A stretch of 23,481 nucleotides of DNA, from the IMG/VR virus record IMGVR_UViG_2565956633_000002; one strand, written 5' to 3'. The notes under the pieces are model-generated. The model was given only the letters and a program-made list of their open reading frames with translations, searched no databases and was not told where the DNA came from. The translations under genes were made by a program, and so were the position numbers. Each line of letters starts with the position of its first letter. Within the stretch, counting starts at the first letter, position 1. The stretch is from a virus. Taxonomy: Duplodnaviria > Heunggongvirae > Uroviricota > Caudoviricetes. Below are positions 3,380 through 20,354 of the stretch, one piece after another.

Positions 3380-3396
3380 AGAATTATTAGAGCAAT
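3380..3396 (-). promoter_or_regulatory. C1 operator (Op99-like)
   Basis: Minus strand reads ATTGCTCTAATAATTC. Confidence 0.65.
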
Positions 3397-3462: not shown

Positions 3463-3479
3463 ATTGCTCTAATAAATTA
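3463..3479 (+). promoter_or_regulatory. C1 operator (Op99-like), upstream of coi-c1
   Basis: ATTGCTCTAATAAATTA, 16/17 to consensus. Confidence 0.7.
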
Positions 3480-3717: not shown

Positions 3718-3927
3718 ATGGCTTTCATTCCACCAACCATCGACGACGTTAGACATTGCTCTAACGCTTTATCTGTAGACCCCGCCGAAACCGACGCTGC
3801 CCGCGCCATTGCTGAACACTACTCAAAGATATCCAATCAGGAGTACCGCATCACCCAAGACGACCTGGATGATCTCACTGACACAATCGAATATCTCATG
3901 GCCACTAACCAGCCAGACTCACAATAA
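3718..3927 (+). CDS. coi: Coi, C1 inactivator, 69 aa
   Basis: 69-codon ORF directly upstream of c1 with Shine-Dalgarno GTGAGG. The size and position are those of P1 coi. Confidence 0.8.
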   Translation: MAFIPPTIDDVRHCSNALSVDPAETDAARAIAEHYSKISNQEYRITQDDLDDLTDTIEYLMATNQPDSQ

Positions 3928-3928
3928 A

Positions 3929-3945
3929 TGCACTAATAAATCTAT
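3929..3945 (+). promoter_or_regulatory. weak C1-operator-like site between coi and c1
   Basis: TGCACTAATAAATCTAT, with the core CTAATAAAT conserved. A near-copy occurs at 23058-23074. Confidence 0.3.
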
Positions 3946-4037: not shown

Positions 4038-4889
4038 ATGATAAATTATGTCTACGGCGAACAACTGTACCAGGAGTTCGTCAGCTTCAGGGATCTCTTT
4101 CTAAAAAAAGCTGTTGCACGCGCCCAACACGTTGATGCCGCCAGCGACGGTCGTCCTGTTCGCCCGGTTGTCGTTCTGCCGTTCAAAGAAACGGACAGCA
4201 TTCAGGCTGAAATTGATAAATGGACTTTAATGGCGCGGGAACTGGAACAGTACCCAGACCTCAATATCCCAAAGACTATTTTATATCCAGTGCCTAACAT
4301 CCTTCGCGGTGTGCGTAAGGTTACGACTTATCAGACAGAAGCTGTGAACAGCGTCAACATGACCGCTGGCCGCATTATTCATCTGATTGATAAGGACATT
4401 CGCATCCAGAAAAGCGCGGGGATCAATGAGCACAGTGCGAAATACATAGAGAACCTGGAAGCAACAAAAGAGCTAATGAAGCAGTACCCGGAGGATGAAA
4501 AATTCCGTATGCGTGTACACGGCTTTAGCGAAACAATGCTGCGCGTCCACTACATTTCCAGTAGCCCTAACTACAATGATGGTAAATCAGTTAGTTACCA
4601 TGTGCCGCTGTGTGGTGTGTTTATCTGCGATGAAACTCTCCGTGATGGAATCATCATCAACGGTGAATTCGAGAAAGCAAAATTTAGCCTTTATGACTCT
4701 ATAGAACCGATCATCTGCGACCGCTGGCCGCAGGCAAAAATATATCGCCTGGCAGATATTGAAAATGTAAAAAAACAAATTGCCATCACTCGCGAAGAGA
4801 AAAAGGTCAAATCAGCCGCATCAGTTACGCGCAGCCGTAACACTAAGAAGGGGCAGCCAGTAAACGACAACCCCGAAAGCGCGCAATAA
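4038..4889 (+). CDS. c1: C1 repressor of lysis (immC), 283 aa
   Basis: Translation MINYVYGEQLYQEFVSFRDLFLKKAVARAQHVDAASDGRPVRPVVVLPFKETDSIQAEIDKW... matches P1 C1 in sequence and length. Strong Shine-Dalgarno GGAGGAGG. Confidence 0.95.
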   Translation: MINYVYGEQLYQEFVSFRDLFLKKAVARAQHVDAASDGRPVRPVVVLPFKETDSIQAEIDKWTLMARELEQYPDLNIPKTILYPVPNILRGVRKVTTYQTEAVNSVNMTAGRIIHLIDKDIRIQKSAGINEHSAKYIENLEATKELMKQYPEDEKFRMRVHGFSETMLRVHYISSSPNYNDGKSVSYHVPLCGVFICDETLRDGIIINGEFEKAKFSLYDSIEPIICDRWPQAKIYRLADIENVKKQIAITREEKKVKSAASVTRSRNTKKGQPVNDNPESAQ

Positions 4890-4892
4890 ATT

Positions 4893-4914
4893 ATGCCCGG
4901 CATCAACCGGGCAT
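4893..4914. terminator. bidirectional terminator-like hairpin between the convergent c1 and ant genes
   Basis: ATGCCCGG-CATCAA-CCGGGCAT, an 8-bp stem with A/T-rich flanks on both sides. Confidence 0.45.
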
Positions 4915-4921
4915 TCTTCCA

Positions 4922-6040
4922 TTATTCAGCTGCCACCGGTTTTAACAAGCCAGCATCGAGCAGTTTACGCGTCAACCACTGCTGGCCTTTACCCGTTAAT
5001 TGAGGCGTCAACCGTATCTGGTAGCCATCTTCATCATCCAGCACCACTTCTTTCACCGTGAAATACCCCGCGTTGATGTACTGCTGGAACGGCACATTTT
5101 TACGTCCACCGGACGCTATCAGGATGCCGTTCTCCCGTAACCAGACAAACAGCGCGTTTTGCTTAAGTCCAACAACCTTTGCAAAATTCCCAATCAGGAT
5201 CCCTTTAGCTACTGATACCCGGTCGGCAAAATCGACTTTAGGAGCGGCGGCCACCAGCTGCTGATTTAGCTGGTGGGCTTTCTGTTCCAGAAGTTGCTTT
5301 TGTTCAGCCAGTTCGGCAGCCAGGCGTAGGGCTTCAGGAAGCGTCTGGGGGATTGCGATCGGTTGCTGTTCTTTTTGTCGGAAGTAGCTGTCTTCCAGTT
5401 TTTCAAAGAATGCCCATGCCTGATCGGTTTCGAGCATTTTAGCGTGGCGGGCTGCGCCGCGTTCTGTCCAGAGGGTGAGTGAGCGAACATTGCGAGCAAT
5501 TTTTACAGAGTAGTTTAAAGCTACTCTGTGCTTCAACTCGCGCAATGATTCTCCTTCAACTTTGAAAAAGTGCTTCCCTTCAACAAAGCGTACTTTGTTC
5601 TCATGATGATTTTGGCGAATACGGATTGTTTCTGTCCCATACCCTCTAGCAAGAGTCTCGGTTGTCACTACACGCACTCCCTGCCATTCCAGAACGGGAA
5701 TTTCATCAGACTGATTCTGAACAACCACCAGCTCCGATTCCTGAACTGAAGGTGCATGAATTTTTTCTGATTTAACGTTAGTTGCTTTCATTCTGTGTGC
5801 CTCCTTGCGTGCTTCGGCTGCGACGGTTGCGTAATTCAGATGACCCTGTTCGAGCAGGTATTCGCGAATATCAGACAGCAGGATACGGTGAACCGCGTTC
5901 TTGTCCTTTCTCCGGTAAAGTTGTTTAGTGATCATGAAGTAGTTGGCTATAACACTGGGAATATCCCTGGTGCTGATACAGGCAGTGTGCTGTTCAATTG
6001 CCTCGATCATCTCTTCACGGGTGACTAATGACGTTCTCAT
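4922..6040 (-). CDS. ant: antirepressor Ant1 (372 aa) with in-frame internal start for Ant2 (ATG at 5790, 289 aa); ORF6N/Bro-N-like and KilA-C-like regions
   Basis: 372-codon ORF translationally coupled to the upstream 73-codon ORF (ATGA overlap at 6037-6040). A perfect internal Shine-Dalgarno AAGGAGG sits 8 nt before Met84. The predicted 41 kDa and 32 kDa products fit P1 Ant1/Ant2. The C-terminal region looks like a KilA-C antirepressor domain. Confidence 0.7.
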   Translation of the reverse strand: MRTSLVTREEMIEAIEQHTACISTRDIPSVIANYFMITKQLYRRKDKNAVHRILLSDIREYLLEQGHLNYATVAAEARKEAHRMKATNVKSEKIHAPSVQESELVVVQNQSDEIPVLEWQGVRVVTTETLARGYGTETIRIRQNHHENKVRFVEGKHFFKVEGESLRELKHRVALNYSVKIARNVRSLTLWTERGAARHAKMLETDQAWAFFEKLEDSYFRQKEQQPIAIPQTLPEALRLAAELAEQKQLLEQKAHQLNQQLVAAAPKVDFADRVSVAKGILIGNFAKVVGLKQNALFVWLRENGILIASGGRKNVPFQQYINAGYFTVKEVVLDDEDGYQIRLTPQLTGKGQQWLTRKLLDAGLLKPVAAE

Positions 6041-6258
6041 AGCCCCTCCTGAACAGAAGCGTTAACAGGGAGGCACCAGTAACTGAGAGAATTGCGTGAA
6101 TCAGTGGAAAAACGGGCAGAGAAAATACATGGGGCGTCAGGAAGCTGAGAGCGGGCCTCATCTTCTGTTGGTGCAATAACGAAGTGATAGTGACGTTTTT
6201 GGCAGGAGTAAAAGCGCCAGATAAATTCAGGATGAGTTGGGGTAGGGATAGTAGCCAT
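6037..6258 (-). CDS. icd: Icd-like protein, 73 aa, translationally coupled to ant
   Basis: ATG at 6258 is preceded by Shine-Dalgarno AAGGAGG then a 7-nt spacer. Product is MATIPTPTHPEFIWRFYSCQKRHYHFVIAPTEDEARSQLP... The 73-aa size and the icd-ant coupling mirror P1 immI. I do not remember the P1 Icd sequence, so the identity is structural only. Confidence 0.55.
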   Translation of the reverse strand: MATIPTPTHPEFIWRFYSCQKRHYHFVIAPTEDEARSQLPDAPCIFSARFSTDSRNSLSYWCLPVNASVQEGL

Positions 6259-6423
6259 ATTGGCAGCCTCCTTAGACGTTGGTATGTAACCACCGCAGAA
6301 GAGACCAATCTTGCTGGCGGTGGACTGTACGGAGTTGGCCTTACTGGCGTCCAAGGTAACCAGCCTACCCGAAGGTAGCCCCATACAGCCCACCATTGTA
6401 GAGGTGTGCGTGTACGCCGATAC

Positions 6424-6447
6424 AAAAAAAAGACGCGAGCGGCGTCT
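6424..6447 (-). terminator. rho-independent terminator, minus strand
   Basis: Minus RNA reads AGACGC-CGCTC-GCGTCT followed by U8 (plus-strand A-run at 6424-6431). Confidence 0.55.
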
Positions 6448-6570
6448 GTATCGCCTTAGACTTAAGCGGGAGGCCAATCCCGGCACCCGTTTTAATGAGG
6501 TGCCTGATAAGCATAAACCGAAAATGCCTCAAGGCGCAAGAGGTCAGGTTCAATGTAACATCGGTAGCTA
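6448..6570 (-). ncRNA. candidate c4-like antisense regulatory RNA (boundaries approximate)
   Basis: This is the transcribed region between a C1-operator promoter and the terminator. It contains AUUGGCCUCC, which is complementary to the icd ribosome-binding site GGAGGCUGCCAAU, and a GUCUAAGG copy also present at that site. The arrangement follows the P1 c4-icd-ant paradigm. Confidence 0.3.
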
Positions 6571-6577
6571 AAAAACA

Positions 6578-6594
6578 CAATTTATTAGAGCAAA
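6578..6594 (-). promoter_or_regulatory. C1 operator (Op51-like) at the head of the immI-like module
   Basis: Minus strand reads TTTGCTCTAATAAATTG, 15/17 to consensus. Confidence 0.65.
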
Positions 6595-6597
6595 TGT

Positions 6598-8082
6598 TCA
6601 TTCATTAAGCCATGCCAGAGCTTCATCAACCTGCGCTTCGTCTTCGACGCTAAGCACTTCATCCTGGGGAACATAATCCGCCAGCATAGCGAAACAATAT
6701 GTATCCCAATGGTCTGGTGAGTGCAGGTTGAGTTTTTTCTTCATATCCTCCTTACTCATCACCTTCCATTGACCTGCGGAGTTAATCCCTACAGGGATTT
6801 TCGACGCTTCCTCAATAGTTTCATTACCCTTATCCAGTCTCATACGACCAGATTTTACGGCCTCTGCGGCTTGAACGTTGGCATAAGCACGTTTATCAAA
6901 GTACAGGCTCTTATCTTCACGGCTATGCATCTTTTTACCCCAGCGTATACGCTGTACGGTAATACCATAATACTCGTACATCAGATCCGCTGTTGCTTTA
7001 CCCAGGCCATCGCCATCTATCGCTATGGTGATATTGGGGAATCGCTCAGGATTACATTCTGCGAAAATTTTGGCGGCAAGCTGCGTTTCTGTAACGTCTG
7101 TGTATTCCAGCATTCGATAGTTGATTACACGGCGTTTATTTCGCTGGCCGGACACCATCATGATATTGATAACTGACTTATCCCGTCCCGTACCACCAGC
7201 AACGTCCACACATGCAAGCCAGCCCCATCCTTTGGCAATCTTAACTTTCCGCCGCGTTGCACGTTCAACCTCATCACGTCCAAGAAGGAAGCCGTCCTGT
7301 GATTTAGGGAATAGGCCGCGCACCTTAATCATGTACATAGGGTTATCACGCCCGCCGTACTCCGCCAGCTTCATTTTGATAAATTCTGGCGTTACCAGCG
7401 GTGATTCCTCACTGTTAAGCGTGATCGCCGTATAAACGCCATCTGGGTTACCAGGACGCTTGGCCAGTTTATGGTGAGTATCGTAGAAATAGCCGCTTGG
7501 GCGTGTAGGCTGTGACAGTAATAAGATGCGGTTATCCTGTCCGGTAAGAGCACCGGTGATGATACCGAAAGCTCTATCACTGACACCGGAGGCTTCATCG
7601 ATAATATACAGAAGATGATCTGCGTGTTCACCGGCGAGAGCTTCTTCACTTCCCAGACGAAAGCCCTTCGGTACTACAGTCCATACACCTTTACCAGTAA
7701 CCTCATAGAAAGCGGTTTCTGTCAGAACAAAATAATCAGCAAGCCATGGAAAACGGCTGGTGGCAGTAGCCCAGTTTATCTTGATGTACTTGAATATACC
7801 GGTCATTACCTGCTGAATTTTGTTCGCAACGATAATGGCACGGGCACCTGGATACATGATTATGAACAACATGATCATGATAGAAGTCATGTCTGATTTC
7901 CCGGTACCGTGACCAGACGAAACAGATGTCTTGCTACCCTGTTCCTGCACAGACTCAATAATCAGATCCTGCTGCCAGGTAGGTGTTTTGCCGAACAAAA
8001 CATCAGCGGCAGCAATCCAGTCATAACGATATAGCGCCACCAGCTCGCGCCAACGTGGATCCGTTACGCAACTTCTGGCCAT
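6598..8082 (-). CDS. pacB: PacB, pacase / terminase large subunit, 494 aa
   Basis: Terminase-type ATPase with Walker A GHGTGKS and a C-terminal nuclease region. The 494-aa length and the one-base overlap with the upstream gene (TAATG) match P1 pacB. Confidence 0.9.
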
Positions 8083-9275
8083 TAATCATCATCCCCGTAT
8101 AGCTTGCGGGTAACTTCTTCGTCTTCCTCCTCGTCTTCGTCCAGGTCTTGTTCCAGCCATGGGTCGTTTGATACACCTTCAGTATCAACATCTCCATAAC
8201 CGCCTGTATCAACGATATCGGCGATTTCTTCCCTACGCTGCTCAATCCACAATGCGGCATCGGCGCGGCGGTTGGCGGCCCGTTCTCGCGCAACTTTGTC
8301 CAGATCTTCAAGAGAAGGGCCACCGACGGCTGTTTGCCTTTCCTCATCATCGGTATTGGTCTTAGGAGCACGCAGATCGGCTTTGATTTGCTCCAGCATC
8401 AGGGGCGGTACTTTCCCTCCATGCGCCTCGATGAATTCAGCTGCCTCCAGCACTGACCAGTTGTTTTCACGCTTTCGTTCGTATGCCAGCTTAACAATGC
8501 CAGCTTGCCCCATAGACAAAGCGTGCTTTTCCGCCTCCCGGCTTTCTTTTCGATAGTTATTCCGGATGCTGTAAATGGTGTTGATCAGGCTGCTTATCTG
8601 CGCGGAACAGCTGTTTAGCATGCTCGCGATACGGTATTCAGGCGGAGTTCCTTCATCATCGTCTTTTTGCTGATCGCGCATTTCCTGAACCAAGCGAATA
8701 CACGTATCCCTGGCGTTCTCCAGCATAAGGAGATGAGAGAGAGACTTTTCCAGAAGAGTGGTTTCCAGAACATCAGCCCCGGACCGACGCAACATAGCGC
8801 GCGCGGCCTTCCGCGCTTCAACGTTATCTATCAGGTAATCGCCAGCTTCGAATTCAAAGCGTTCACCATCATCATCCAGGGTGTCGCGTTCCAGGCGATC
8901 ACGTAAGGTCCGGTGGGCGCGGGTGATCACGTCATGATCATCAGAACGATCATTTATGCGCTTATTCTGGCGCTTCGCGTTCTCGACTGCGGCACTGACA
9001 ACAGCATTAACTCTTTGTTTTTCAGCCATTTCAGCCACAATGTGATCACCTGCACGTTGATCATTAGCGTGATCAATGATCATGCTTTTTAGTGGTTTTC
9101 TGACAGGCTTATTTGGCTTACGGCTGTCCGCTGTTCCGGTGTCTTCTTTGAATGCACGGAGATAACGACGTGCGGTGTTTGGGTTGAGATTAAACTCGGC
9201 GGCATATTGTGCGATGGTGTAACCACCATCTCGCGCCAGGCGAGCAAAATTCTTCTTGTGATCGTCCCAGGTCAC
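8082..9275 (-). CDS. pacA: PacA, pacase small subunit, 397 aa (GTG start)
   Basis: GTG start with Shine-Dalgarno AAGGAAG. The product has an N-terminal helix-turn-helix-like region and an acidic tail, and the pac site lies inside the ORF as in P1. Confidence 0.88.
8896..9083. other. pac packaging site: two clusters of TGATCA/GATC hexamers flanking the presumed cut region
   Basis: TGATCA at 9043, 9058, 9070 and 9078 on one side. On the other side, GATC-containing hexamers at 8896, 8924, 8935 and 8948. This is the known 4 + 3 Dam-site architecture of P1 pac. Confidence 0.65.
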
Positions 9276-9871: not shown

Positions 9872-9901
9872 ATTAAAGAAATAGCAATACATTAGAGCAA
9901 T
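9872..9901 (-). promoter_or_regulatory. tandem C1 operators (Op88-like)
   Basis: Minus strand reads ATTGCTCTAATGTATTGCTATTTCTTTAAT. Confidence 0.6.
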
Positions 9902-11935: not shown

Positions 11936-13498
11936 ATGAAAATGACAAGTATTCAACAACGTGCAGAGCTTCATCGTCAAATCTGGCAAATTGCTAACGA
12001 TGTCAGGGGTTCGGTCGATGGATGGGATTTTAAGCAATACGTTCTGGGCGCACTTTTCTACCGTTTTATCAGCGAAAATTTTTCCAGCTATATTGAAGCC
12101 GGTGATGACAGCATCTGTTATGCGAAACTGGATGACAGCGTAATTACTGATGACATTAAAGACGATGCCATCAAAACCAAAGGCTACTTCATCTACCCAA
12201 GTCAGCTTTTCTGCAACGTAGCTGCGAAAGCAAATACCAATGACAGACTGAACGCAGATTTAAACAGCATCTTCGTTGCTATCGAAAGCTCTGCTTACGG
12301 TTACCCTTCAGAAGCTGACATCAAAGGTTTGTTTGCTGATTTCGATACCACCAGTAACCGCCTGGGTAACACCGTTAAAGATAAAAATGCCCGCCTGGCT
12401 GCGGTTCTGAAAGGGGTTGAAGGGTTAAAACTTGGTGACTTCAACGAACATCAGATTGACCTGTTCGGTGATGCCTATGAGTTCCTGATTTCTAACTATG
12501 CGGCAAATGCCGGTAAGTCAGGCGGTGAGTTCTTTACACCGCAGCACGTCTCTAAGCTGATTGCACAACTGGCAATGCACGGCCAGACCCACGTTAACAA
12601 AATCTACGACCCGGCAGCAGGTTCCGGTTCGCTGTTGTTGCAGGCTAAAAAACAGTTTGATGACCATATCATCGAAGAAGGCTTTTTTGGTCAGGAGATC
12701 AACCATACGACCTATAACCTGGCGCGTATGAACATGTTTTTGCACAACATCAACTACGACAAGTTTGATATCAAGCTGGGTAATACACTGACTGAGCCGC
12801 ACTTCAGAGATGAAAAACCGTTTGATGCCATCGTTTCTAACCCGCCGTATTCGGTGAAATGGATTGGCAGCGATGACCCGACGCTGATTAACGATGAACG
12901 TTTTGCCCCGGCTGGCGTTCTGGCCCCCAAATCCAAAGCTGACTTTGCGTTTGTATTACATGCGCTGAACTATCTTTCTGCCAAAGGTCGTGCTGCGATT
13001 GTCTGCTTCCCGGGCATTTTTTACCGTGGCGGCGCGGAGCAGAAAATCCGTCAGTATCTGGTTGACAATAACTATGTCGAAACCGTGATTTCACTGGCAC
13101 CGAACCTGTTCTTTGGCACCACCATTGCCGTAAATATTCTGGTGCTGTCTAAACATAAAACGGATACCAAAGTTCAGTTTATTGACGCCAGCGAACTGTT
13201 CAAAAAAGAGACTAACAACAACATCCTGACCGATGCCCATATCGAAAAAATTATGCAGGTATTTTCCAGCAAGGAAGATGTTGCCCATCTGGCAAAATCT
13301 GTCGCGTTTGAGGCCGTTGTCGCGAATGACTATAACCTGTCAGTGAGCAGCTATGTAGAAGTGAAAGATAACCGCGAAACTATCGATATTGCTGAGCTAA
13401 ATGCTGAGCTGAAAACCACGGTCAGCAAAATCGACCAGTTGCGTAAAGATATTGATGCGATTGTGGCTGAAATTGAAGGCTGCGAGGTGCAGAAATGA
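11936..13498 (+). CDS. hsdM: Type I restriction-modification methyltransferase subunit HsdM, Type IC (EcoR124 family), 520 aa
   Basis: N6-adenine methyltransferase motifs are present: [10 protein letters not shown] (AdoMet binding) and VSNPPYS (motif IV). The 520-aa length and N-terminus [25 protein letters not shown] fit EcoR124-type HsdM. Confidence 0.93.
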
Positions 13499-14706
13499 GC
13501 GAGTTGAGTTATCTGGAAAAATTGCTGGATGGGGTTGAAGTTGAGTGGTTGCCATTGGGGGAAATAACCAAATATGAACAGCCAACAAAGTATTTGGTAA
13601 AAGCAAAAGATTATCACGACACATATACCATACCGGTTCTTACTGCCGGAAAAACATTTATTCTTGGATACACAAATGAGACTCATGGTATTTATCAGGC
13701 ATCAAAGGCACCTGTAATAATTTTTGATGATTTCACCACCGCTAATAAATGGGTGGATTTTGACTTTAAGGCAAAATCATCGGCCATGAAAATGGTTACA
13801 TCATGTGATGATAATAAAACCTTACTGAAATATGTTTACTATTGGCTCAATACATTACCAAGTGAATTCGCAGAGGGAGACCATAAACGCCAATGGATTA
13901 GTAATTATTCTCAAAAAAAAATCCCAATCCCCTGCCCGGATAATCCGGAAAAATCCCTTGCCATCCAGTCTGAAATCGTTCGGATTCTGGATAAATTTAC
14001 TGCACTTACCGCTGAGCTTACCGCTGAGCTTAACATGCGTAAAAAACAGTACAACTATTATCGCGACCAGTTGTTGAGTTTTAAAGAGGGTGAGGTTGAG
14101 TGGAAGACTTTGGAGGAGGTGCTAGTAGATAAATTTTGGATTATGCCCGCAACTCCGAAGTTTGATGACAATGGTGAAATTCCATATGTCACTTCAAAGA
14201 ATATTAGTGGTGGGAACATCGATTTTGAAAGAGTTAAGCATATTTCCCGGGACGATTTTTTGAGCATCTCCAAAAATAGACCGATCTTGAAAGGTGACTT
14301 TCTTATAAGCATGATTGGTACTATTGGTGAGATTGCTCGAGTAAAATGTCTCGATCCTGATTTTTACGGTCAAAACATGTACCTAATCAGGTTGAATGAG
14401 GAATTACTTCACCCTAGATATTTTCTGCATTTCTTCGACTCACCAAGAATGAAATTTTACTTTAAGTCAGTAAAAAACAATTCAGGGCAAGGTTATCTTA
14501 AAGCAAATAACATTGATGGTTTATCTATTCCTTTACCATCGATTGATGAGCAACAAAAAATTGCCTTTATCCTCGATAAGTTCGACACCCTGACCAACTC
14601 CATCACCGAAGGTCTCCCGCGTGAAATCGAGTTGCGCCAGAAACAATACGAGTACTACCGTGATTTACTGTTCAGTTTCCCGAAACCTGAAACTGTCAGT
14701 AATTAA
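13495..14706 (+). CDS. hsdS: Type I specificity subunit HsdS, Type IC, 403 aa, two target-recognition domains
   Basis: ATGA overlap with hsdM. The central conserved region carries the TAEL-TAEL repeat typical of Type IC HsdS, and there are duplicated conserved motifs (QKQYEYYRD / KKQYNYYRD). Confidence 0.9.
14005..14028 (+). repeat. tandem 12-bp repeat (CTTACCGCTGAG x2) encoding TAEL-TAEL in the hsdS central region
   Basis: Exact tandem duplication read directly from the sequence. In the EcoR124I / EcoR124II paradigm, two versus three copies of this repeat change the spacer length of the recognition site. Confidence 0.85.
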
Positions 14707-14828
14707 TTGACCATTGCTACCGACCGGGCCACCTTAACACCCGGTCAGTATATAGGCTATTTTTTTACACGCTGGAAGTCACCATTAACACCCTTCCGGC
14801 CCTTGCCAGACGGCACAAAGGATGCGCT

Positions 14829-17800
14829 ATGACTCATCAGACACACACCATTGCTGAATCCAATAACTTTATCGTTCTTGATAAGTACATCAAAGCTGAG
14901 CAAACAGGCGACAGCTATCAGAGTGAATCGGACCTGGAACGGGAACTGATTCAGGACCTGCGAAATCAGGGCTATGAATTTATACCCGTAAAATCACAGT
15001 CGGCGATGCTGGCCAACGTTCGGGAACAGCTTCAGAACCTCAATGGTGTGGTGTTTAATGACAGCGAATGGCGGCGTTTCACGGAGCAGTATCTGGACAA
15101 CCCGAGTGATGGCATTCTGGATAAGACCCGTAAAATCCATATCGACTATATTTGCGACTTTATTTTTGATGACGAGCGTCTTGAGAACATCTATTTGATA
15201 GATAAAAAGAATCTCATGCGCAATAAGGTGCAGATTATCCAGCAGTTTGAACAGACGGGTTCTCATGCTAACCGTTATGACGTCACGATCCTGGTTAATG
15301 GTTTACCGCTGGTGCAAATCGAACTAAAAAAACGCGGGGTGGCGATTCGTGAGGCTTTCAACCAGATACATCGTTACAGTAAAGAGAGTTTTAACAGCGA
15401 AAATTCCCTGTTTAAGTATCTGCAACTGTTTGTCATTTCTAACGGCACCGATACCCGTTATTTTGCCAACACGACAAAGCGCGATAAAAACAGTTTTGAC
15501 TTCACCATGAATTGGGCGAAATCAGACAACACGCTGATTAAAGACCTCAAAGACTTTACCGCTACCTTTTTCCAGAAACATACTCTGCTGAATGTTCTGG
15601 TGAACTACAGCGTTTTTGACAGTAGTCAGACGCTACTGGTGATGCGACCGTACCAGATTGCCGCCACCGAACGAATCTTATGGAAAATCAACAGCTCCTA
15701 TAAAGCGAAAAACTGGTCTAATCCCGAAAGCGGTGGCTTTATCTGGCACACTACCGGTTCTGGTAAAACACTGACCAGCTTTAAAGCCGCGCGTCTGGCA
15801 ACAGAACTGGACTTTATTGATAAAGTCTTCTTCGTGGTCGACAGGAAAGACCTCGATTACCAGACCATGAAGGAATACCAGCGTTTTTCGCCAGACAGCG
15901 TCAACGGCTCGGAAAATACCGCAGGTCTTAAACGAAATCTGGATAAGGACGATAACAAAATTATCGTCACCACTATTCAGAAACTTAATAACCTGATGAA
16001 AGCAGAAAGCGACCTGCCTGTATACAATCAGCAAGTGGTGTTTATATTTGATGAATGCCACCGCAGCCAGTTTGGAGAAGCGCAGAAAAACCTGAAGAAG
16101 AAATTCAAACGCTATTATCAGTTTGGTTTTACCGGCACACCTATTTTCCCGGAAAACGCTTTAGGCTCAGAAACGACCGCCAGCGTATTTGGCCGTGAAT
16201 TGCATTCGTATGTGATTACCGATGCGATTCGAGATGAAAAAGTGCTTAAATTCAAGGTGGACTACAACGATGTGCGGCCACAGTTTAAGTCTTTAGAGAC
16301 AGAAACCGACGAGAAAAAACTGAGTGCGGCTGAAAATCAGCAGGCGTTTCTTCATCCCATGCGTATACAGGAAATTACGCAATATATTCTGAATAACTTC
16401 CGCCAGAAGACCCACCGTACTTTCCCAGGTTCCAAAGGCTTTAATGCCATGCTGGCAGTGAGTAGCGTGGATGCCGCGAAAGCCTATTACGCGACGTTTA
16501 AACGGTTACAAGAGGAAGCAGCTAATAAATCGGCTACCTATAAACCGCTGCGTGTTGCGACAATCTTCTCCTTTGCCGCCAATGAAGAACAAAATGCCAT
16601 TGGTGAAATTTCCGATGAAACTTTTGATACCAGCGCAATGGACAGCAGTGCTAAAGAGTTTCTGGACGCTGCAATTCGTGAATATAACAGCCATTTTAAA
16701 ACTAACTTTAGCACCGACAGTAACGGTTTTCAGAACTACTATCGTGATTTAGCCCAGCGGGTTAAAAATCAGGATATCGATCTGCTAATTGTCGTGGGGA
16801 TGTTTTTAACCGGCTTCGATGCTCCAACATTGAACACGCTATTCGTCGATAAAAACTTGCGTTTTCACGGCCTGATGCAGGCATTTTCCCGCACCAACCG
16901 TATTTATGATGCAACTAAAACCTTCGGTAATATCGTCACTTTCCGGGATCTGGAACGCTCAACTATTGATGCCATAACGCTGTTTGGTGACAAAAACACC
17001 AAAAATGTGGTGTTAGAAAAGAGTTATACAGAGTATATGGAAGGCTTTACTGATGCTGCTACAGGTGAAGCTAAACGCGGCTTCATGACAGTAGTTTCAG
17101 AACTGGAACAACGGTTCCCTGACCCTGCCAGTATTGAAAGTGAAAAAGAGAAGAAAGACTTCGTTAAACTGTTTGGCGAATACCTGCGTGCCGAGAACAT
17201 CCTGCAAAACTATGATGAATTTGCCACGCTAAAAGCCCTGCAACAAATCGATCTTAGCGATCCTGTTGCGGTAGAAAAATTCAAAGCAGAACATTATGTG
17301 GATGATGAAAAGTTCGCTGAATTGCAAACAATTCGTCTCCCTGCTGATCGCAAGATTCAGGATTATCGTTCTGCCTATAACGATATTCGCGACTGGCAGC
17401 GCCGTGAGAAAGAAGCTGAGAAAAAAGAGAAATCAACCACTGACTGGGATGACGTAGTTTTTGAGGTCGATTTGCTGAAGTCTCAGGAAATAAACCTGGA
17501 TTATATCCTTGGACTGATTTTCGAACACAACAGACAAAATAAAGGCAAGGGCGAAATGATCGAAGAGGTCAAACGCTTAATTCGTTCAAGCCTGGGGAAC
17601 CGAGCGAAAGAGGGCCTGGTGGTCGATTTTATTCAGCAAACGAACCTGGATGATTTACCAGATAAAGCCAGTATCATTGAGGCATTCTTTACGTTTGCTC
17701 AACGCGAACAGCAACGTGAAGCAGAAGCATTGATAAAAGAAGAAAATCTCAATGAAGAAGCAGCAAAACGCTATATTCGCACGTCTTTAAAACGCGAATA

Positions 17801-17945
17801 CGCCACCGAAAATGGCACAGAATTAAACGAAACATTACCAAAACTTAGTCCATTGAATCCGCAATATAAAACGAAAAAACAGGCAGTTTTCCAGAAAATC
17901 GTCTCGTTTATTGAGAAGTTTAAAGGCGTAGGCGGAAAAATATAG
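14829..17945 (+). CDS. hsdR: Type I restriction endonuclease subunit HsdR, Type IC, 1038 aa
   Basis: Superfamily 2 helicase motifs are present (Walker A TGSGKT, DEAH-box FDECHRSQ). The 1038-aa length matches EcoR124I HsdR as I recall it. Shine-Dalgarno AAGGA. Confidence 0.93.
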
Positions 17946-18195: not shown

Positions 18196-18212
18196 AGATT
18201 TATTAGAGCAGC
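18196..18212 (-). promoter_or_regulatory. C1 operator
   Basis: Minus strand reads CTGCTCTAATAAATCTT, 14/17 to consensus. Confidence 0.55.
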
Positions 18213-20288: not shown

Positions 20289-20354
20289 ATTGCTCTAATA
20301 AAAAACGTGATGAGTGTACATCACGTTTTAAAAATATGGAATTATTAGAGCAAT
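20289..20354. promoter_or_regulatory. pair of divergently oriented C1 operators flanking a hairpin
   Basis: ATTGCTCTAATAAAAAA on the plus strand at 20289-20305. Hairpin CGTGATG-AGTGTA-CATCACG at 20306-20325, with an A-run before and a T-run after. Minus-strand ATTGCTCTAATAATTCC at 20338-20354. Confidence 0.6.

Follow-up and report, generated by a model that had tools for sequence, protein, structure and literature searches.

An immI-type antirepressor cassette between the pacB and c1 genes of P1-like phage-plasmids

Location and boundaries of the cassette

The DNA analyzed here, referred to as the window, is the 23,481-nucleotide IMG/VR virus record IMGVR_UViG_2565956633_000002, and it is P1-like phage-plasmid DNA. 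Its pacB and c1 genes are separated by an inserted cassette of 1,708 bp (4890-6597, minus strand) that holds the elements of the immI immunity region of phages P1 and P7, namely a C1 operator, an antisense RNA gene of the C4 type, and the icd and ant reading frames. Coordinates are in window numbering, and cassette features are on the minus strand unless noted otherwise. An initial annotation made from the sequence alone had proposed an immI-like module beside c1 and convergent with it, and every element that it listed was found, each well beyond chance expectation.

The cassette was delimited by junction comparison and the P1 annotation. The block from 4890 to 6597 exactly replaces the 24-bp c1-pacB spacer of P1 and phiW39, beginning with the first base past the c1 stop codon and reaching up to the pacB stop codon. 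P1 has 24 bp between these two stop codons, and its immI (Oc4, P51a/b, a1, b1, c4, a2, b2, icd, ant1/ant2) is found some 45 kb from there, between sim and kilA-repL. This agrees with the P1/P7 map as given in the initial annotation, with immI far from immC and followed by kilA-repL, and c1 next to pacB. The observation named there as able to refute the proposal, P1 itself having immI between pacB and c1, is ruled out by the P1 gene order, which lacks the cassette at that place. The alignment to P1 and P7 that it had called for gave the same result: in both, as in SJ46 and phiW39, the c1 and pacB flanks aligned in two pieces and the cassette was absent. It was present in RCS47, JL22, and vB_EcoM-673R5. 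The module thus lies between pacB and c1 and not between sim and kilA-repL; position is not a mechanistic feature, and the off-canonical position marks a paralogous copy.

Both junctions were base-identical across all alleles examined, which points to a single ancestral insertion that later diversified internally. The c1 gene (4038-4889, plus strand; 283 amino acids, NCBIfam phage_rep_C1 equivalog) is preceded by coi, and on the other side pacB (6598-8082, minus strand) is adjoined by pacA (8082-9275, minus strand). A G+C-rich hairpin, ATGCCCGG-N6-CCGGGCAT (4893-4914), lies between the convergent stop codons of c1 and ant. It is within the cassette, is identical in all alleles, drew a terminator-like call on the minus strand (4914-4893), and is likely a terminator shared by c1 and ant.

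Operator and candidate promoters

A C1 operator-like site, TTTGCTCTAATAAATTG (6578-6594, minus strand), heads the cassette 3 nt past the pacB stop codon. It is the equivalent of P1 Oc4/Op51, occupies the same relative position as Oc4, and matches the consensus ATTGCTCTAATAAATTT at 15 of 17 positions (6594-6578, 2 mismatches). The window contains 9 sites within three mismatches of this consensus compared to 0.14 expected, so the operator heading the cassette is not a chance match. It was kept at the head of every sampled allele, with one base change in one only (pFLI21_1, L009). The eight further operator-like sites in the window have 1 to 3 mismatches (1378-1394, 3380-3396, 3463-3479, 3927-3943, 9885-9901, 18196-18212, 20289-20305, and 20338-20354), some of them where P1 would lead one to expect a site: upstream of coi/c1, near cre, and upstream of lpa.

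Two candidate promoters were read downstream of the pacB stop codon. The first (6552-6580, minus strand), an analogue of the C1-controlled P51a proposed by analogy with P1 P2c4, has a -35 element TTGTGT (6580-6575) that overlaps the operator and an extended -10 element TGT-TACATT (6560-6552). At the sequence level, the cassette therefore has a C1 operator-like site overlapping a candidate promoter, as is typical of P1 immI. The second (6510-6539, minus strand), a candidate constitutive promoter assigned by homology to P51b/PisrK, consists of TTGCGC (6539-6534), an 18-nt spacer, and TATGCT (6515-6510). Transcription would start some 7 nt past it, where the leader RNA model begins (6503). Both hexamers are conserved in alleles at the canonical immI site and in phage D6 (TTGCGT/TATCCT, TTGCGC/TATATT). 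This candidate matches the consensus at 8 of 12 positions, which is below the threshold of the sigma-70 scan.

Leader RNA, C4 RNA, and target sites

An IsrK-like leader RNA (6426-6503, minus strand) scored 60.8 bits against the Rfam family isrK (RF01394; cutoff 50). It ends in an intrinsic terminator, called as a stem at 6447-6431 followed by a U8 run, so that the leader has both the score above the curated cutoff and the terminal terminator of the isrK family. Site a1, UUGGCCU (6477-6471), is in the leader hairpin loop, and b1, GUCUAAGG (6461-6454), is downstream of it. The P1 leader matches Rfam c4-a1b1 with 51 bits and isrK weakly with 35 bits at the homologous place; judged by this homology, what matches isrK in the window is the a1/b1 leader of a C4 system, of a type whose score exceeds the isrK cutoff.

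The candidate antisense RNA of the initial annotation was confirmed as a C4-type RNA gene (6313-6400, minus strand), which matched Rfam C4 (RF01695) over its full length (1-87) with 75.9 bits (E = 1.7e-13; cutoff 45). Its b' site, CCUUGGACG (6356-6348), is in the loop of hairpin 2, and its a' site, AGGCCAA (6341-6335), is in an unpaired junction. Site a2, UUGGUCU (6302-6308, minus strand), is in the leader of the icd-ant mRNA. Site b2, CGUCUAAGG (6278-6270; feature 6267-6278), overlaps the icd Shine-Dalgarno sequence AAGGAGG (6273-6267). The a' site pairs with a1 and a2, and b' pairs with b1 and b2, with 7/7 and 8/8 pairs at all four sites. The seven a'-a2 pairs include one G-U, as do the eight b'-b2 pairs over the octamer GUCUAAGG; a flanking C-G gives b'-b2 a ninth pair by reading. 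The cassette therefore has the C4 fold of P1-type immI and its two-site complementarity, with b2 on the icd ribosome-binding site. In P1, a'/b' are complementary to a1/b1 of the leader and a2/b2 of the mRNA, b2 abuts the icd ribosome-binding site, and the geometry of b2 is the same. The spacing of a1 and b1 is 16 nt in the cassette compared to 14 nt in P1, and that of a2 and b2 is approximately 30 nt compared to 29 nt.

The leader RNA and the a/b target sites are additions to the elements listed in the initial annotation. Database annotation of this region is misleading. PGAP places an "ash family protein," often as a pseudogene, over the C4 RNA and leader (window 6313-6503; L004:18894-18995; L007:2905-3111), and the JL22 record has "hypothetical protein gp120" over the same region. 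Such labels conceal the RNA genes, and hence the module.

The icd and ant reading frames

The icd-like reading frame (6037-6258, minus strand; 73 amino acids, 8.4 kDa) is behind an AAGGAGG, matches NCBIfam phage_ICD_like, and encodes a product 82% identical to P1 Icd, which also has 73 amino acids. The length was 73 amino acids in all copies whose locus spans the entire reading frame. The ant1-like reading frame (4922-6040, minus strand; 372 amino acids, 42.5 kDa) starts with an ATG that overlaps the icd stop codon (ATGA), from which we infer that translation of the two is coupled. It matched the PHROG "anti-repressor Ant" at 1.9e-131 and contains the Pfam domains ORF6N (residues 116-202; 5695-5435) and KilAC/ANT (residues 260-361; 5263-4958). 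The 73-codon frame joined to a 372-codon antirepressor, as first proposed, is thus borne out by Icd and Ant family matches together with the overlap.

The suggested comparison of Ant with P1 Ant1 was run and gave 56% identity overall and approximately 93% in the C-terminal third (last ~145 residues); the first ~95 residues also resemble the P1 Ant1 N-terminus. A sequence search for a relative of Ant in PDB found none. The proposed internal in-frame start, with a second product of about 32 kDa, was located at M84: an ant2-like frame (4922-5791, minus strand) begins at ATG 5791 behind the Shine-Dalgarno sequence AAGGAGG (5806-5800), with a predicted product of 289 amino acids and 32.8 kDa. P1 ant2 starts at the same codon 84 with the same Shine-Dalgarno sequence, and M84 was invariant in the Ant alignment. 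The icd frame joined to ant by ATGA and the ant1 frame with a nested in-frame ant2 are both arrangements of P1-type immI. Ant had 364 to 372 amino acids in 24 of 30 complete copies, and the other 6 had ant truncated or disrupted by insertion sequences (IS).

Four additional open reading frames (6365-6601, 6015-6425, and 6037-6486 on the minus strand, 6311-6571 on the plus strand) were rejected as genes; they overlap the RNA genes or icd and had no family match.

Covariation and C4 specificities

At least five C4 specificities were found between pacB and c1. The window type combines a' AGGCCAA with b' CCUUGGAC. RCS47 has GUCUCAA with CCUUUGAC, JL22 has GUCUCAA with CCUUUUGC, ETEC1706 has GUUCCAA with CCUUUGAC, and a further allele has GUUCCAA with CCUUUUGC. 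In the non-window alleles, all four targets were altered to fit the a'/b' of the same allele.

Covariation was assessed formally in 9 RNA cassettes, comprising seven operator-C4-icd-ant modules (from pacB|c1, canonical immI, and D6) and two immunity regions of P4-like satellites. P1 was left out of the count, as MAFFT shifted its a' by one column and mis-gapped its a2, and its pairing was read directly; a1/b1 pairs were counted by script, since the alignment had split a1 of the window row with a gap. Pairing in the a'-a2 and b'-b2 helices together was 91.7%, and over 27 cells eight pairs were changed on both sides. The a'-a2 helix was 100% paired, with 4 pairs changed on both sides across alleles. 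None of 500 shuffles reached the observed paired fraction or covariation score, and sliding the partners by 1 to 3 columns lowered pairing to 26-53%. Cognate sets of C4 and targets paired at 14-15 of 15 positions, compared to 8-15 for non-cognate sets; the only non-cognate 15/15 was JL22 against the second D6 module, the a/b sites of the two being identical, and all remaining non-cognate sets paired at 8-14. Among IMG/VR modules, 42 of 43 were fully complementary at a1, b1, a2, and b2, with allele counts of 22 (window type), 13, 5, and 3. Such a pattern is the one that selection for RNA-RNA pairing leaves.

The lone non-cognate IMG/VR module (among L023-L067) had a' GUUCCAA and a2 UUGGAAC with a1 UUGAGAC. 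It looks like a recombinant whose leader target no longer fits its C4.

Proposed working and comparison with known systems

We consider it likely that the block from 4890 to 6597 is a complete, probably functional second immI-type module that is wired into the C1 circuit and operates as immI does in P1 and P7. Its elements, their arrangement and geometry, the covariation, and the conservation across alleles are direct observations. The expression steps proposed below (promoter activity, RNA processing, repression by C4, and coupling) and the binding of Ant to C1 are modeled on P1/P7 immI.

In a lysogen, C1 on the operator at 6594-6578 would shut the overlapping promoter, and the weaker downstream promoter (6539-6510) would keep leader, C4, icd, and ant transcribed. 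Many transcripts would end at the leader terminator and yield an IsrK-like RNA of ~78 nt with a1 and b1, and read-through transcripts would be processed into the C4-type RNA. The a' and b' sites of C4 would then pair with a2 and b2 of the mRNA. Since b2 covers the icd ribosome-binding site, icd would not be translated; nor would Ant1 or Ant2 be made, as the ATGA overlap would couple ant to icd. Upon entry into a cell without the cognate C4, or when C1 is absent, icd and ant would be expressed, Ant would neutralize C1, and lytic growth would be favored. The predicted binding and inactivation of C1 draws on homology in the N-terminal and KilAC parts of Ant, its middle domain being replaced. Because the C4/target specificity differs from that of the canonical immI of the same genomes, the module would add an independent layer of heteroimmunity.

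The cassette has the same elements as P1/P7 immI in the same order: an operator over a promoter, an a1/b1 leader, C4, a2/b2, a 73-amino-acid Icd, an ATGA-coupled Ant1, and Ant2 from codon 84. However, it is at pacB|c1 and has no sim, kilA, or repL, whereas the P1 module is between sim and kilA-repL. The C4 sites also differ (AGGCCAA and CCUUGGAC in the cassette, CUGUCAA and UCACUAAC in P1), the leader scores as isrK where that of P1 scores as c4-a1b1, and the middle of Ant is ORF6N where P1 has a specific segment of its own. Other relatives are alleles at the canonical site in pSJ_98 (NZ_CP011063) and pJMK02 (NZ_CP180395). These have an IsrK-type leader, C4, Icd, and an ORF6N-KilAC Ant, and they are 83-89% identical to the window module in nucleotide sequence over the matching part (58-69% of it). 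They differ in occupying the classical immI position, followed by kilA and repL, and in their sites (a' GUUCCAA, b' CCUUUUGC).

The role of the leader is the main mechanistic uncertainty, as it may be a target of C4, a decoy for it, or both. A similar order is known from Gifsy-1 of Salmonella (isrK-orf45-anrP), where an isrK-family leader with a terminator is followed by read-through to a processed RNA and a small reading frame coupled to an antirepressor; unlike the cassette, this locus is without a C1 operator, and its output feeds the antiterminator AntQ. There the short terminated IsrK activates translation of the read-through mRNA, raising anrP translation more than 100-fold (Hershko-Shalev et al. 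2016, PMC4825925). The authors noted complementarity between IsrK and STnc1160, the processed downstream RNA, and similarity to seqA/CI of P4, in which the outcome of immunity is premature transcription termination (summarized in PMC4825925). The cassette could accordingly be mainly a switch of the activating Gifsy-1 type, in which the short leader acts in trans on the read-through transcript, or soaks up C4, and turns on the small reading frame and the antirepressor. The leader would then be a positive regulator, and the switch could be tuned by physiological signals and not by superinfection alone. The isrK score with its own terminator and the identical order of isrK, processed RNA, small frame, and coupled antirepressor favor such a switch, as does the pairing of a1/b1 with C4 as well as a2/b2 with C4, by which the leader could compete for C4. 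However, the small frame is a P1-type Icd and not orf45, and the homologous leader of P1 immI belongs to a system in which the established net effect of C4 is repression. We regard a primarily activating switch as possible but doubtful. Activation by IsrK and repression by C4 are not mutually exclusive, so it would be a refinement of the immI-type working and not a true alternative to it.

The RNA part of the cassette has relatives in satellites of the P4 family (seqA-CI RNA-seqC). At 85-89% identity it matches the immunity regions of P4-like elements that are integrated beside yicC on E. coli chromosomes. These regions share a' AGGCCAA and differ in their b sites, and downstream of them are satellite replication genes (primase) and not icd-ant with a C1 operator. 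The Rfam clan CL00128 holds both C4 and c4-a1b1. In the loci compared (L017:4991-5241 and L018:4990-5243 against window 6255-6530), the window C4 would form 14 of 15 pairs with the a2/b2 sites of the O157 satellite. Such near-cognate sites make cross-talk of the phage-plasmid with satellites conceivable. In phage D6 (MF356679, L015:2406-3827), the isrK-C4-icd front end drives a Rha-type (Phage_pRha) antirepressor and not an ORF6N-KilAC Ant, and no obvious C1 operator was found in the 110 nt upstream. The RNA-icd cassette could thus be a portable regulatory head for different effectors, as this sequence comparison suggests.

Mosaic structure and the middle domain of Ant

Comparison of the alleles gave 97-100% identity for c1, pacB, and most of the module, and two islands dropped to 50-80%. 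These were the RNA cassette (~6235-6515) and the part of ant that encodes ORF6N (~5340-5640). At least 6 ORF6N types, mutually 48-80% identical and only partially linked to the RNA type, were present at the pacB|c1 locus. P1 Ant1 has an unrelated segment of ~100 amino acids in the ORF6N position, and the Ant of pJMK02 has both segments. In these elements C1 was ~98% conserved, so the variation in ORF6N is not accounted for by diversity of C1.

P1 Ant1 and Ant2 bind C1. The variation described above raises the alternative that Ant of the cassette, instead of acting on its own C1, inactivates repressors belonging to other prophages or plasmids in the same cell, as a weapon between mobile elements whose target is set by ORF6N. 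In favor of this are the position of ORF6N in one of only two hypervariable islands (51-72% between alleles, compared to 97-100% around it), the many types at a single locus with their partial link to the RNA type, the constancy of C1, and the Rha-type antirepressor behind the same RNA-icd front end in D6. However, the N-terminal 95 amino acids and the KilAC domain are common to P1 Ant1/Ant2, the C1 operator at the head wires the module into the C1 circuit, and nothing points directly to a target other than C1. An Ant directed exclusively at foreign repressors is therefore unlikely in our view, and we retain the C1-directed, immI-type working described above.

Extra copy or relocated module

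The initial annotation had left open whether the genome was rearranged or carried an extra immunity module. Of these, the extra module is supported by the genomes compared and the rearrangement is not. RCS47, JL22, and vB_EcoM-673R5, all three phage genomes with the module, have the cassette at pacB|c1 and retain a canonical c4-icd-ant1/2-kilA-repL locus. In 673R5 the cassette is the window allele, and the C4 of the canonical locus differs (a' CUGCUAA, b' UCAUUCGU); the c1 and ant coding sequences of this record are fragmented, probably by sequencing errors, and its RNA regions alone were used. At least 2 ant-like places were found in 36 of the 40 best plasmid matches. Plasmid p95JB1A (NZ_CP021336.1) has three operator-C4-icd-ant modules (L021:28687-30268, L021:36271-37855, and L022:29152-30725), one at pacB|c1, one on the ref side, and one beside kilA-repL at the canonical site. 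All three differ in a'/b': AGGCCAA/CCUUGGAC, CUGCUAA/UCAUGUAC, and GUUCCAA/CCUUUUGC.

These data support the cassette as an extra, and not a displaced, immI module. The alternative, that it is the sole immI of its genome and was relocated by rearrangement from its place next to sim/kilA-repL, would fit NZ_CP145673, which has a 100% identical module and no canonical immI, and NZ_CP099352 (99.9% identical module) and several other plasmids with one ant-like place only; the replicon of the window itself is known only as far as the window reaches. However, NZ_CP145673 is an IS-riddled, capsule-gene-carrying, degraded P1 derivative that has lost most phage genes along with canonical immI. The junctions are identical in all alleles, the insertion plainly replaces the spacer with kilA-repL and sim unmoved, and the C4 specificity is unlike that of the canonical copies. 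Relocation of a sole immI is thus very improbable, and the extra immI-type module is the better description. Least probable of all is that the cassette is a decaying passenger without present function: it is absent from about half of the matched P1-like contigs, which show no sign of defect, and 6 of 30 complete copies have a damaged ant, but the three-way compensatory covariation of the C4 loops with four target sites is not expected in decay and is a strong argument against a relic, and all loci covering icd have it intact, ant is undamaged in 80% of complete copies, and the operator, both Shine-Dalgarno sequences, and the nested start are conserved.

Several points nevertheless weigh against a working second immI module in the window. 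The steps of expression and binding stand on homology to P1/P7 immI. The simple sigma-70 consensus scan called neither promoter and gave nothing convincing on the minus strand upstream of the leader. The G-U wobbles in a'-a2 and b'-b2 of the window allele could make its repression weaker than that of other alleles. The middle domain of Ant is unlike that of P1 Ant1 and is hypervariable while C1 is conserved, so the target of Ant may not be C1, or not C1 alone. Disruption of ant in ~20% of complete copies means that the module is dispensable. Lastly, an extra copy in the replicon of the window itself is deduced from relatives, with only the window being known: no PLSDB plasmid matched the source replicon, the best whole-window identity was 97-98%, and the two records whose module is 100% identical diverge from the window elsewhere.

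Prevalence and earlier reports

At least 80% of the module was recovered from 290 plasmids of PLSDB and from 279 of the 5,426 complete E. coli genomes, and the window RNA allele was found at 99% identity or more in 129 E. coli records. In IMG/VR, 45 contigs had the occupied junction and 50 had the P1-type empty spacer; these counts come from exact-pattern matches and are lower bounds. The arrangement noted in the initial annotation is therefore real, but it is not as unusual as was thought there, since the cassette is in roughly half of the IMG/VR contigs that fit either junction pattern. Contig IMGVR_UViG_2698536372_000019 has the junction of pacB end and operator twice (L038:1224-1251 and 2790-2817), 1,566 bp apart and each followed by a window-type C4, which could reflect partial duplication of the module in tandem or an artifact of assembly.

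Venturini et al. (2019) mentioned an insertion at pacB|c1 in passing, citing RCS47. Their two "short hypothetical orfs" are probably icd and an annotation artifact over the RNA genes. Our literature search found no functional analysis of the cassette and no mention of its RNA genes, and the module goes unmentioned in the JL22 paper; the search did not extend to the original RCS47 paper or to that on D6 (Gilcrease & Casjens 2018), which may discuss multiple immI-like regions. The cassette thus belongs, as a paralog, to a known kind of module, and its polymorphic site is visible in hundreds of records and has been noted once in print.

Implications

In E. coli and Salmonella, P1-like phage-plasmids are widespread and carry resistance and virulence genes, and whether they coexist, exclude, or mutually induce each other depends on their immunity circuits. 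We tentatively propose that up to three orthogonal modules at fixed sites, each with a combinatorial a/b code whose sites reassort and with a separately hypervariable Ant, could form a multi-locus immunity barcode that decides superinfection and induction among P1-like elements, possibly with cross-talk to P4-like satellites. Provided that the extra module works as predicted, many natural P1-like elements would hold two or three independent antisense-RNA locks on antirepressors compared to the single immI of textbook P1, and expectations for heteroimmunity, plasmid incompatibility-like behavior, and prophage induction would shift. The naturally occurring alleles also offer a ready-made series of RNA regulator/target pairs that appear orthogonal. 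For the window itself, the outcome is mainly a tidy annotation of a known kind of switch at a known polymorphic site. The most worthwhile leads are the allelic series of C4 and targets, the presence of up to three modules per plasmid, and the hypervariable domain of Ant.

Neighboring cargo

Elsewhere in the window, three plus-strand reading frames of 520, 403, and 1,038 amino acids (11936-17945) adjoin the phd-doc/pdcB/lpa block. They are annotated in relatives as the M, S, and R subunits of a type I restriction-modification system, a cargo absent from reference P1.

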